From: Streptomyces marincola
GTDB lineage: Bacteria; Actinomycetota; Actinomycetes; Streptomycetales; Streptomycetaceae
Direction: 5' to 3'
Length of the DNA: 32,000 nucleotides
Assembly (NCBI RefSeq): GCF_020410765.1
Contig: NZ_CP084541.1
Coordinates: 1,449,444-1,481,443, forward strand
The translations under genes and the position numbers were made by a program. Shown here in pieces: positions 16,001 to 21,184 of this stretch; within the stretch, counting starts at the first letter, position 1; each line of letters begins with the position of its first letter. Below the pieces are notes generated by a model that searched no databases, was not told where the DNA came from, and saw nothing but the letters and a program-made list of their open reading frames with translations.

Positions 16001-19000
16001 TGTACGACGACTACGCGGCCCGGCTCGCGGCAGCGCCCGAGGAGTTCGAAGGGTTCCTGCTCGCGGGCAACCTCTCCAGTGTCATGTCCGGCCGCCTGGC
16101 CTACACCTACGGCCTCGAAGGCCCGGCCGTGACCGTCGACACGGCCTGCTCCTCCTCGCTCGTGGCCATGCACATGGCCGCCCAGGCCCTTCGCTCCGGC
16201 GAATGCGGCCTCGCCCTCGCCGGCGGCGCGACCGTGATGGCCGGCCCGAGCACGTTCGTGGAGTTCTCGCGGCAACGGGGCCTGTCACCCGACGGCCGGT
16301 GCAAGTCGTTCTCCGCGTCCGCCGACGGCACCGGCTGGTCAGAAGGCGTCGGCCTGCTGCTCCTGGAACGGCTTTCGGACGCCCGGCGCAACGGCCACCC
16401 CGTCCTCGCCATCCTCCGGGGCTCCGCCATCAACCAGGACGGCGCGAGCAACGGCCTCACCGCGCCCAACGGCCCCTCCCAGGAACGCGTCATCCGCCAG
16501 GCCCTGGCCAACGCGCAGTTGACGCCGGCCGACATCGACGTCCTCGAAGCCCACGGCACCGGCACCAGACTCGGCGACCCCATCGAGGCCCAGGCCGTCC
16601 TCAACACCTACGGCGCCGACCGCCCCGAAGGCCGCCCCCTCCACCTCGGATCACTGAAGTCCAACATCGGCCACGCGCAAGCGGCGGCGGGTGTCGGCGG
16701 CGTCATCAAGATGATCGAGGCCATGCGGCACGGCGTCCTGCCGAAGACGCTTCATGTCGACAAGCCGACCGACCACGTCAACTGGGACGCCGGCACCGTC
16801 GAACTCCTCACCGACACCCGCCCCTGGCCCGACACCGGCCACCCCAAACGCGCCGCCATCTCCTCCTTCGGCATCAGCGGCACCAACGCCCACCTCATCA
16901 TCGAACAACCCCCCGCCCAGACCAGCACCAACACCGACACCGACACCGACACCGATGACAGGACCGAGGACCGCGCCCGCACGGCGGACCTCCTGCCCGC
17001 GCCCCCCACGACCTGGCTGCTCACGGCACGCAGCACGGAGGCCCTGCGCGCCCAGGCCGACCAGCTGCACGCCTACGCCACCAGTCACCCCGACATCACC
17101 GCCGAGGACATCGGCCTGTCCCTCGTCACCGGCCGCGCCGTCCTCACCTACGGAACGGCGGTCGTCGGCGCCGACCGGGAGACGTTGCTCGGCAAGCTCA
17201 AGGTGCTGGCCCAGGGCACGCAGGGCGCCGATGTGCTGCGCGGCACGGCCGACGACGCCGGGACGACAGCGTTCATGTTCACCGGACAGGGCAGTCAACG
17301 GCTCGGCATGGGCCGGGAGTTGTACATGGCGTTCCCCGTGTACGCCCGTGCGCTCGACGAAGTGGGCCGGCATTTCCACGCGGAGCTGATGCACCCGCTC
17401 AAGGACGTGCTGTTCGCCAAGGAGAGCACCGGAACGGCGGCGCTGATCAACCAGACGGCCTTCACGCAGGCGGCGCTGTTCGCCACCGAGGTCGCGCTGT
17501 ACCGGCTGCTTGAGCACTACGGCCTGCGTCCCGACTACCTCGTCGGCCACTCCATCGGGGAGCTGACCGCCGCCCATCTCGCGGGCGTGCTCTCCCTGCC
17601 GGACGCCGCCCACCTCGTCGCGCACCGGGGACGGCTGATGCAGGCCGCCCGTCCGGGCGGCGCGATGGCGGCCGTGCGAGCGACGGAGGAGCAGGTGCGC
17701 GCCGCCCTGGCCGACCTTGACCCCGCCACCATCGCCATCGCCGCCGTCAACGGTCCCGAGAGCGTGGTGGTGTCGGGTGACAGCGACGTGGTCGAAGCGC
17801 TGGTCGCGCGCTGGCGGGAGGAGGGCCTGAGGGCCACGCCGCTGACCGTCAGCCACGCGTTCCACTCCCCCCACATGGACGACGTGCTGGACGAGTTCCG
17901 CACCATCGCCGCCGAGGTGACCTACCACCCGCCGACGATCCCGGTGGTCTCCAACGTCACCGGCACCCTCGCCACCGCGGAACAGCTCACCTCACCCGAC
18001 TACTGGACCCAGCACATCCGCCAACCCGTCCGCTTCCACCACGGCATCCGGCTGCTGAAGAACGAGGGCGTCAGCACCTTCGTCGAGGTCGGCCCCGACG
18101 GCGTGCTGTCGGCCCTGGCCCGCGAGGAGCTCAACGAGGAGAGCCAGGTGGCGGTGCCGCTGCTCCGGCGCGGGCGACCGGAGGCCGAGACGTTCGCCGG
18201 TGCGCTCGCCACGTTGCGCATGCACGGCCTGACTCCCGACTGGTCCCGGGTGTTCCCGGGTGCCTCGCGCGTGCCGCTGCCCACGTATCCGTTCCAGCGG
18301 CAGCGGTTCTGGTTGGAGGAGTCGGCCGGTGCGGGGAACGCGGCAGCGTTCGGACTCGCCGCCACCCAGCACCCCTTCCTCGGCGTCGGAGTCGAGGTCG
18401 CCGGCAACGACGAATACCTCTTCACCGGCCGCCTCTCCCTCACCACCCACCCCTGGCTCACCCACCACACCATCGGCGACACCACCCTCCTCCCCGGCAT
18501 GGCCATCGCCGAAATGGCCATCACCGCCGGCACCCAAACCAACACCCCCCACCTCGCCGAACTCACCCTCACCACCCCCATCACCCTCACCCCCCACACC
18601 ACCACCCGCATCCAACTCGCCCTCACCGCACCCAACCCCGACGGACACCGCAACCTCCGCATCCACACCACCACCGACCCCCACACCCACCCCGCCACCT
18701 GGACCCTCCACGCCCAAGGCACCCTCACCCCCACACCCCCCAACCCCACACCACCCCCCACCACCCACACCACCTGGCCACCCCCCAACACCCAACCCAT
18801 CCCCCTCGACAACCTCTACCAACGCCTCACCCACCACGGCTACCACTACGGCCCCACCTTCCAAGCCCTCACCCACCTCTGGCAAACCCCCCAAGGCGAC
18901 CTCCACGCCACCCTCCAACTCCCCGACAACACCCCCACCACCGGCTTCCACCTCCACCCCGCACTCCTCGACGCCGCACTCCACCCCCTCCTCCCAGAAA

Positions 19001-21184: not shown

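Follow-up and report, generated by a model that had tools for sequence, protein, structure and literature searches.

The stretch of DNA analysed here (hereafter the window) is 32 kb of the linear chromosome of Streptomyces marincola SCSIO 64649T (CP084541), which was sequenced on the PacBio RS II platform and assembled with HGAP4. The GC content of the whole window is ~72%, and from position 7069 to its end the plus strand encodes a modular type I polyketide synthase (PKS). Our subject is a DH-KR-ACP cassette of this PKS that is depleted of G on its coding strand and is present in two copies, in modules 2 and 3. We consider it very probable that the cassette is a case of GRINS (genetic repeats with intense nucleotide skews) in a cis-AT modular PKS, shaped by a strand-specific nucleotide drive, purifying selection and copying between modules. 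It is an intense, apparently unreported instance of this published phenomenon and not a new kind of element. The two PKS genes and the cassette-related features are the following.

7069..21184, plus strand: PKS1, with a KSQ-AT-ACP loading module, modules 1 and 2 and a C-terminal docking domain (translations, Pfam)
18289..19308, plus strand: GRINS block A copy 1, DH of module 2; identity 0.985, GC skew -0.68, TA skew -0.40
19021..19025, plus strand: C5 homopolymer with one extra C relative to the C4 of the twin, shifting the frame inside the copy 1 DH (twin alignment)
19309..19488, plus strand: unskewed DH-KR linker of copy 1, G-rich and of low complexity (alignment and composition segmentation)
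19489..20958, plus strand: GRINS block B copy 1, KR and ACP of module 2; identity 0.995, GC skew -0.72, TA skew -0.50
21239..32000, plus strand: PKS2, with an N-terminal docking domain, modules 3 and 4 and a C-terminal docking domain (translations, Pfam)
22729..24948, plus strand: GRINS block over the KS-AT linker, AT, post-AT linker and DH of module 3, the DH portion being block A copy 2; identity 0.976, GC skew -0.55, TA skew -0.36
25159..26628, plus strand: GRINS block B copy 2, KR and ACP of module 3; identity 0.994, GC skew -0.73, TA skew -0.50
26241..26247, plus strand: C7 homopolymer with one extra C relative to the C6 of copy 1 (20592-20597), shifting the frame between the copy 2 KR and ACP (twin alignment)

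Together the two genes provide a loading module and four modules, split 3 + 2. The first KS (7069-8478) is a KSQ, in which Gln replaces the active-site Cys, and therefore PKS1 begins with a decarboxylating loading module. Module 1 (KS-AT-DH-KR-ACP) has an ordinary composition, and module 2 consists of KS-AT followed by the skewed DH-KR-ACP. In module 3 the KS is followed by an almost fully skewed AT-DH-KR-ACP, the skew spanning from the KS-AT linker to the ACP. Module 4 is KS-AT-DH-KR-ACP with an altered DH, to which we return below.

The initial annotation of this DNA had described a G-depleted cassette at 18360-20946 and a twin of it at 24070-26596, and this is where we found the skew. The first of these regions contains 1454 C, 596 A, 311 G and 226 T, that is, its GC skew is -0.65 and its TA skew is -0.45; the corresponding values of the twin are -0.68 and -0.45, and ordinary PKS sequence of the same genes has a GC skew of about -0.10 to +0.11. 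In the skewed cores (18440-19225 and 19600-20946), A makes up 22-25%, C 58-61%, G 8.3-8.6% and T 8.2-8.4% of the bases, compared to 13, 41, 34 and 12%, respectively, in ordinary modules. In other words, relative to ordinary modules G has dropped by 25 points and T by 3.5, and C has gained 17 points and A 12. In single 150-nt windows the GC skew goes down to -0.96. Delimited by its skewed blocks, the DH-KR-ACP cassette extends over 18289-20958 and its twin over 23990-26628, with a GC skew of -0.68 to -0.73 and a TA skew of -0.40 to -0.50.

The signal is strongest at synonymous sites. The GC skew of the skewed blocks is -0.36/-0.43 at the first codon position, -0.62/-0.70 at the second and -0.92/-0.96 at the third, where C has a frequency of 0.86-0.87, A of 0.11, G of 0.02-0.04 and T of 0.00; in ordinary domains third-position G amounts to 0.39-0.54. 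The ratio of CTC to CTG is 145:1 in the skewed blocks versus 64:121 in the ordinary ones, that of CAA to CAG 51:4 versus 4:32 and that of GAA to GAG 16:2 versus 19:80. CCG and ACG do not occur in the skewed blocks (CCC:CCG = 107:0, ACC:ACG = 223:0), and neither do CGG and GTG. Summed over the four-fold families, the third base is C in 94%, A in 5.7%, G in 0.3% and T in 0% of codons, and in ordinary blocks it is C in 45%, G in 49%, A in 2% and T in 3.7%. Because G and T have been purged at synonymous sites, which are beyond the reach of protein selection, the drive acts at the level of nucleotides and not on the protein.

The encoded proteins follow the same trend. Thr accounts for 23% of residues in the skewed blocks and for 6% in ordinary ones, Pro for 12 and 7%, His for 9 and 3%, and Gln for 5.6 and 2.2%; Asn reaches 4.9%, Leu and Ile are likewise enriched, and Gly, Val, Ala, Arg and Glu are depleted. 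The enriched residues are exactly those whose codons can be written with C and A only, or with C and A plus one unavoidable T. The expectation that such enzymes would be biophysically unusual is borne out as a description, since the skewed domains have 6-8% of charged residues (Asp, Glu, Lys and Arg) versus 15-20% in ordinary domains, 9% His, ~24% Thr and a negative grand average of hydropathy. These same figures might be taken to mean that protein-level selection for low-charge domain surfaces rich in Thr, His and Pro has made the composition. However, such selection would leave unexplained both why the signal peaks at synonymous third positions (G 2-4%, T 0%, one CTG per 145 CTC) and why the residues gained are precisely those with C/A-only codons, so that we find this explanation very improbable.

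A further consequence of the composition concerns the reading frames. The skewed blocks (18440-19225, 19600-20946, 24156-24940 and 25250-26596) contain no stop codons in any of the three forward frames, and therefore a long open reading frame (ORF) is no evidence of coding here; we discarded ORF length as a coding criterion. For the same reason a frameshift does not lead to truncation but produces long false ORFs rich in Pro, His and Thr, such as ORF 18260-21184 and the tail of ORF 21239-26614.

In the definition given by Nivina, Herrera Paredes, Fraser and Khosla (PNAS 2021), a GRINS exceeds 500 bp in length, shares >80% identity with a second region of the PKS it belongs to, and has mean absolute GC and TA skews of >0.15 (PMC8256042). 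According to that study, the skews are correlated, abrupt and strongest at third positions, negatively skewed regions are enriched in Pro, Thr, His and Gln, and the elements are located in AT, KR, DH, ER and occasionally ACP domains, being especially abundant in Streptomyces (PMC8256042). We re-implemented the test using 150-nt windows with a 30-nt step and BLAST in place of pairwise2, with identity taken over 150-nt windows as the mean of 5 adjacent ones. The four cassette-related blocks listed above are 1020, 1470, 2220 and 1470 bp long, their mean window identity is 0.976-0.995, and in all four the mean |GC| skew (0.56-0.73) and the mean |TA| skew (0.36-0.50) exceed 0.15. The two skews are correlated inside the blocks (Pearson r = 0.79) more strongly than outside (0.47); the values given in the GRINS paper are 0.70 and 0.09 (PMC8256042). 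The third-position maximum and the enrichment in Pro, Thr, His and Gln are also those of GRINS. The initial annotation had not made the connection to this phenomenon.

Two AT-type tracts of the same PKS were flagged as well.

8479..9798, plus strand: AT-type GRINS of the loading module; identity 0.98, GC skew -0.54, TA skew -0.38
28009..29698, plus strand: AT-type GRINS of module 4 (28009-29298) together with the partly skewed N-terminal half of the module-4 DH (self-comparison, GRINS test, translation)

Over the six flagged blocks (18289-19308, 19489-20958, 22729-24948, 25159-26628, 8479-9798 and 28009-29298), |GC| is 0.53-0.73 and |TA| 0.36-0.50. In the loading module, the KS-AT linker, the N-terminal part of the AT and the post-AT linker are skewed, and the catalytic core at ~9076-9400 is not. 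The test also flagged two weak blocks, 16099-16938 and 27139-27978, which correspond to the C-terminal KS halves of modules 2 and 4. With an identity of about 0.91 and |GC| of 0.19-0.23 this pair is barely above the GRINS thresholds and may represent an eroding or nascent element.

Self-comparison of the window revealed two repeat families. The first is the DH-KR-ACP tract of modules 2 and 3. Its twins are 95.7% identical by BLAST over 18274-19380 and 23990-25125, nearly all of the differences falling into the unskewed DH-KR linker, and 99.65% identical over 19505-20949 and 25154-26599. Within the skewed blocks, two single-base indels separate the twins, and over the 1.45-kb KR-ACP block four substitutions are the only further differences. 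The second family is the AT tract of the loading module and modules 3 and 4 (8457-9785, 22699-24033 and 28001-29296), with identities of 94-98%. The skewed tracts have thus been recently homogenised between modules. The twin tract is not skewed throughout: unskewed islands are found over its first ~100 bp, in the DH-KR linker and where the KR structural subdomain starts, and in block A copy 1 the intense skew extends over ~18440-19225. The element is a sharp-edged mosaic and not one uniformly skewed segment. The DH-KR linker differs between the twins in both sequence and length. In copy 1 only, the linker contains at 19380-19505 a G-rich low-complexity insert composed of GACGCGGAC and GACGTGGAC repeats and encoding ...VRDVDVDV. 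This insert is an unskewed island between two GRINS blocks; the linker of copy 2 is different and much shorter.

The DH, KR and ACP motifs of the cassette that were quoted in the initial annotation are all in place. The DH has HPFL at 18370-18381, its codon cac at 18466-18468 aligns with the catalytic His of HxxxGxxxxP, and the Pro of this motif, the YGP motif and the Asp/His of the DxxxQ/H motif are retained. In the KR we find TGATGTLG, SRTG, Lys (20222-20224) in LQPKINAAW, YSS (20288-20296) and Tyr (20333-20335) in NYAAAN, that is, the Rossmann motif and the catalytic Lys-Ser-Tyr; the second Asp of the LDD motif is present too (HIAGTTDD), so that the PF08659 domain has the features of a B-type KR. 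TGATGTLG had been put forward as a motif that survived recoding, yet among homologues it is simply the family consensus. The ACP, a PF00550 domain, carries its Ser (20834-20836) in LGFDSL. Pfam recognises all three domains far above its cut-offs, as the first of the checks proposed for the cassette had called for: the skewed KR scores 181-182 bits (209-210 for ordinary KRs, cut-off 22.6), the ACP 52 bits (cut-off 20.8) and the DH halves (PF21089 and PF14765) 84-87 bits. In a phmmer search of the PDB, the skewed KR matches entry 3slk at E = 1.8e-63. In AlphaFold models, the KR has a predicted local distance difference test score (pLDDT) of 87.4 and a predicted template-modelling score (pTM) of 0.88, and the DH 91.9 and 0.87. 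The models superpose on solved PKS structures with Foldseek TM scores of 0.72-0.76 for the KR and 0.79-0.82 for the DH.

To see how the departures from ordinary sequence are distributed, we aligned the frame-corrected cassette and two ordinary cassettes of the window with 95 compositionally ordinary homologues. At columns that are at least 90% conserved, the skewed cassette matches the consensus in 88% of cases, and the ordinary cassettes in 91 and 88%. With decreasing conservation the two kinds diverge: the skewed cassette has 51% matches at columns of 70-90% conservation (69 and 66% in the ordinary ones), 34% at 50-70% (56 and 48%) and 20% at 30-50% (39 and 28%). Conversely, the share of residues encoded by C and A only (T, P, H, N, Q and K) in the skewed blocks is 26% where the columns are most conserved and climbs steadily to 88% where they are least so. 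Such residues account for 304 of the 440 departures from consensus, and Leu or Ile for another 67. The claim that nearly all non-critical positions have been recoded is therefore overstated: the shift toward C/A-encoded residues is real, and it takes the form of a gradient along conservation. Domain scores, site-wise conservation, predicted structures and the synonymous purge together support the idea that purifying selection has been riding on a compositional drive and that the cassette is not a decayed pseudogene. Each copy should act as a B-type KR, with TDD in place of LDD, and a DH giving a trans-enoyl intermediate on its own ACP, and we infer that the skewed enzymes are active.

A second strain, S. 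marincola SCSIO 03032, allows a glimpse into the history of the skew. Its locus (CP021121.1, in reverse orientation) is collinear with window positions 1-16316 at 96.2% identity, and the flanking amine oxidase is 98% identical between the strains. Since the comparison reaches position 16316, ~2 kb before the cassette, the AT tract served as a proxy for the cassette in estimating the ratio of non-synonymous to synonymous substitution rates (dN/dS). The loading-module AT GRINS is found at the orthologous site of SCSIO 03032 with the same skew (-0.55), the tract being 94% identical. Between the strains dN/dS is 0.18 and 0.50 in the skewed AT blocks, compared to 0.19-0.22 in ordinary parts, and dS is 0.074-0.076, close to the background of 0.08-0.11. 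Taken together, the shared skew, the dN/dS values and the background-like dS indicate that the skew is an inherited, stable state under purifying selection and not the product of ongoing hypermutation. In the unskewed catalytic core of the loading-module AT (9076-9400), dS between the strains is 0.36 versus ~0.08 in its surroundings, which suggests that the strains may have received this core from different paralogous donors via gene conversion. The same comparison bears on whether the skew could be a sequencing or assembly artefact, or a collapsed repeat. The region is indeed repetitive and of low complexity, and the assembly does have homopolymer indels. But an independently sequenced strain carries the AT-type tract at the orthologous site with the same skew, the twins have different flanks and linkers, and correct PKS domains are encoded in register, so that the chance of an artefact is negligible.

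Several observations weigh against our reading of the cassette. First, while the catalytic His and Pro of the DH, the Lys, Ser and Tyr of the KR and the Ser of the ACP survive as had been claimed, two conserved motif positions of the DH depart from the family: Asp stands in place of the Gly of HxxxG (HTIGD), and Leu in place of the Trp of LPFxW (IPFTL). In HTIGD, a Gly sits one residue before the Asp that replaces the motif Gly. Second, the AlphaFold confidence derives for the most part from the alignment of ordinary homologues; the models speak for compatibility with the fold and are weak evidence of actual folding. Third, the dN/dS estimates cover the AT tract, with 4-14 changes, and not the DH-KR-ACP cassette. 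Fourth, the only products that Shi et al. detected in SCSIO 64649T are heronamide F and piericidin A1. Fifth, the base changes are not those expected from the only mechanism published for GRINS, namely tautomer-driven transitions, which predict G-to-A and T-to-C on this strand (PMC8256042): at four-fold sites G makes up 49% in ordinary and 0.3% in skewed blocks, C 45 and 94%, and A 2 and 5.7%, a net G-to-C transversion that the tautomer model alone does not predict. Finally, each of the twins is frameshifted in the assembly, and at face value both module 2 and module 3 are broken.

The frameshifts, which had escaped the initial annotation, deserve a closer look. PKS1 becomes a single gene once one C is deleted at 19021-19025; as assembled, it is covered by two ORFs in different frames, 7069-19293 and 18260-21184. 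PKS2 is annotated as two ORFs solely owing to the extra C at 26241-26247. In the assembly as given this puts the copy 2 ACP out of frame, and after correction the ACP reads directly into the following KS linker. If both frameshifts were real, the cassette would be GRINS-derived but dead, PKS1 and PKS2 would be pseudogenes in SCSIO 64649T, and the conserved residues would reflect recent inactivation. Consistent with this are the single-base insertion in each copy, the 133 pseudogenes annotated in the genome, the lack of an assigned product for the cluster and the fact that poly-C runs are natural sites of replication slippage. On the other hand, both indels lie in C homopolymers (C5 and C7) of a PacBio RS II/HGAP assembly, a classic context for consensus errors. 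Moreover, the twins are otherwise nearly the same over the skewed blocks, which leaves room only for an extremely recent inactivation, the PKS1 orthologue of the sister strain SCSIO 03032 is called as one intact gene of 4683 aa, and the rest of PKS1 has a dN/dS of about 0.2 between the strains. We therefore hold inactivation of the two genes to be improbable. Considering that they lie in homopolymers, that the assembly was made from PacBio data only and that the sister gene is intact, the frameshifts are much more likely to be assembly errors or very recent slippage than signs of long-standing pseudogenisation. Programmed frameshifting at the poly-C runs was set aside, as at each site the twin carries the in-frame run length and nothing speaks for such a mechanism.

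How might a GRINS of such intensity have arisen? In the scheme that we favour, a strand-specific process at the nucleotide level has taken G, and with it the T that was rare already, out of the coding strand, with G replaced mostly by C and secondarily by A. Synonymous third positions are affected almost to completion and weakly constrained residues strongly, which yields Thr (ACC), Pro (CCC), His (CAC), Asn (AAC), Gln (CAA), Leu (CTC) and Ile (ATC). Purifying selection has retained the residues required by the folds and active sites of DH, KR and ACP, and as a result G and T survive mainly at codon positions 1 and 2 of conserved sites. Gene conversion or recombination between homologous modules has copied the skewed tracts, the DH-KR-ACP tract between modules 2 and 3 and the AT tract among the loading module and modules 3 and 4.

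What the strand-specific process might be is a separate question. As G has been replaced nearly wholly by C, the tautomer model is incomplete unless codon-usage selection or GC-biased conversion subsequently turns A into C. Papers published after 2021 (e.g. Zhai et al. 2023, PMC9899208) survey GRINS and use them as evolutionary markers, and none of them offers a mechanism. We entertain, with considerable reservation, the possibility that the cassette records a not-yet-identified mutational or repair bias in Streptomyces with a net G-to-C effect on the coding strand. If this is the case, the bias would point to something like lesion bypass that is specific to one strand, or to mismatch correction that is biased when modules undergo gene conversion with each other, and it might be tied to the dense quadruplex-type runs of C/G. 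An extreme and recently homogenised pair such as this one would then be a good substrate for finding the mechanism.

Alternatively, what keeps up the skew might not be biased mutation but selection for some physical feature of the DNA or mRNA itself, be it unstructured mRNA in a giant high-GC transcript or low-complexity, quadruplex-prone DNA that promotes recombination from module to module. Folding energies calculated per 150 nt are -8.5 to -10 kcal/mol in the skewed blocks versus -65 to -79 kcal/mol in ordinary sequence, and thus the mRNA of the skewed blocks is predicted to be nearly unstructured. Quadruplex-type C-run motifs (four runs of C3 or longer with spacers of 1-7 nt) are concentrated there too: 35 of the 41 in the window fall within skewed blocks (18437-20939, 23157-26589, 8909-9759 and 28420-29670), where they represent sites that could form G-quadruplexes on the template strand and i-motifs on the coding strand, and the entire window has 3 G-run motifs on the plus strand. 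Also in line with such selection are the preference for rare A-ending codons (GAA, CAA, AAA) over G-ending ones and the suggestion of the GRINS authors that low complexity may favour gene conversion (PMC8256042). Yet all of these properties are automatic results of the composition, so that cause and consequence are not separated by them. In addition, GRINS occur with both skew signs on one strand (PMC8256042), and G/T-rich RNA would not be similarly unstructured, and the KS domains of the same mRNA are unskewed. For these reasons we consider selection of this kind an unlikely cause of the GRINS skew.

The intensity of the skew stands out among related loci. In seven other Streptomyces PKS loci retrieved for comparison the most skewed 500-bp window reaches only -0.39 to -0.56; shorter patches with the same sign of skew, at -0.45 to -0.56, are seen in other loci of this kind. 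Two short patches, at 11501-12000 of the S. boluensis locus and at 11501-12000 of the Streptomyces sp. NPDC056169 locus, have a GC skew of about -0.5 and occupy the same relative position in the KR catalytic subdomain of unrelated PKS loci; a homologue of the flanking amine oxidase, at 70% identity, is present in S. boluensis as well. At the protein level, the fraction of T, H, P, Q and N in the cassette is 0.51, compared to a median of 0.18 and a maximum of 0.33 in the matched segments of the 149 best hits among 1.84 billion representative proteins. Searches for the same cassette elsewhere returned only relatives at 32-43% identity when one genome per species was scanned, and local identity of at most 48% when representative proteins were searched exhaustively. 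One of the window's own proteins, looked up directly, was not on record. A word-indexed protein search gave, besides the window's own 648-aa fragment, hits at 41-50% identity and one short local match at 61%; as the hits listed are all at most 1253 aa long and giant PKSs are apparently missing from them, this search is weak evidence that no close relative exists.

The genes upstream of the PKS (window 1-7068) are overlapped by many long spurious ORFs, as expected for high-GC DNA. The following could be recognised.

26-1801: SARP-type regulator, C-terminal TPR part
3421-4809, minus strand: FAD monooxygenase
5023-6330: PF01593 flavin amine oxidase
~6500-6900, minus strand: SnoaL-like protein (by comparison with the SCSIO 03032 locus)

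Every AT of the PKS carries HAFH, which is malonate-specific, and the neighbours comprise a SARP/TPR regulator, SnoaL-like proteins, short-chain dehydrogenases/reductases (SDRs) and flavin oxidases. The PKSs for coelimycin P1, streptazone E and argimycin P (Cpk, Stz and Arp) consist of three PKS proteins with a loading and five malonate-only modules and DH-KR loops, and they too are accompanied by a SARP regulator, SnoaL-like proteins (cyclases), SDRs and flavin oxidases; a terminal thioester reductase and an aminotransferase also characterise this cluster type. This likeness is one of gene content and module count alone, with the third PKS, the reductase and the aminotransferase lying outside the window. 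From the gene content we infer an alkaloid PKS of the coelimycin/streptazone/argimycin type, which would make a malonate-only, polyene-forming chain. Shi et al. reported a type I PKS cluster, #9, with 66% similarity to that of streptazone E in both S. marincola strains, and the locus studied here is probably this cluster. The heronamide cluster was also considered as its identity, which, if true, would have made the detected heronamide F a proof of function, and rejected, as the flanking SARP, SnoaL-like proteins, SDRs and PF01593 oxidases and the all-malonate layout with three PKSs fit the streptazone/argimycin type. In the DH of module 4 (29300-30100, gene 26604-32000), ~42 residues are missing over the WPPxGA...GYxYGPxFQ region, His replaces the Gly of HxxxG, and Pfam matches the N-terminal DH model only. 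This DH is probably degenerate or inactive, in which case a hydroxyl would remain at the corresponding position of the chain.

It has been proposed that GRINS let antibiotic-producing assembly lines diversify faster and that they indicate where recombination occurs naturally, which is of use in engineering PKSs. The present instance is a convenient test case, having G and T almost fully purged at synonymous sites, near-identical copies over the skewed blocks, a clean mosaic of skewed and unskewed islands and a sister strain at 96% identity. There is also a practical side. GRINS blocks are rich in C homopolymers and free of stops in the forward frames, and single-base assembly errors can silently split giant PKS genes and distort cluster predictions. 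Such errors may explain the mismatch that Shi et al. met between in silico predictions for other PKS clusters of this genome and known products.

It remains to place the cassette among known systems. The closest is GRINS themselves: here as there, the tracts (1.0-2.2 kb) are >95% identical to another module of the same cis-AT PKS of a Streptomyces host, the skews are intense and correlated and peak at the third codon position, there is more Pro, Thr, His and Gln, the edges are abrupt, and the pattern is a mosaic over AT and reductive-loop domains. There are also differences. Mean skews reach -0.73 (GC) and -0.50 (TA), compared to thresholds of 0.15 (PMC8256042) and about 0.25 in the 2023 survey (PMC9899208); within this window only the negative sign is present; and one block spans an entire DH-KR-ACP including the ACP, whereas published GRINS are found in only about 5% of ACPs (PMC8256042). 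Repeat-induced point mutation (RIP) of fungi likewise couples duplicated sequence with strong directional compositional change. However, RIP consists of C-to-T transitions on both strands, makes DNA AT-rich and destroys genes; in our case GC content stays at ~68%, the change is strand-asymmetric, G having decreased and C and A increased, and the capacity to code is preserved. The replication-associated GC skew seen in bacterial chromosomes shares with the cassette the strand asymmetry of G versus C and T versus A, but it amounts to a few per cent over megabases, whereas the skew described here is 50-95% over about 1 kb, with sharp edges within one gene.

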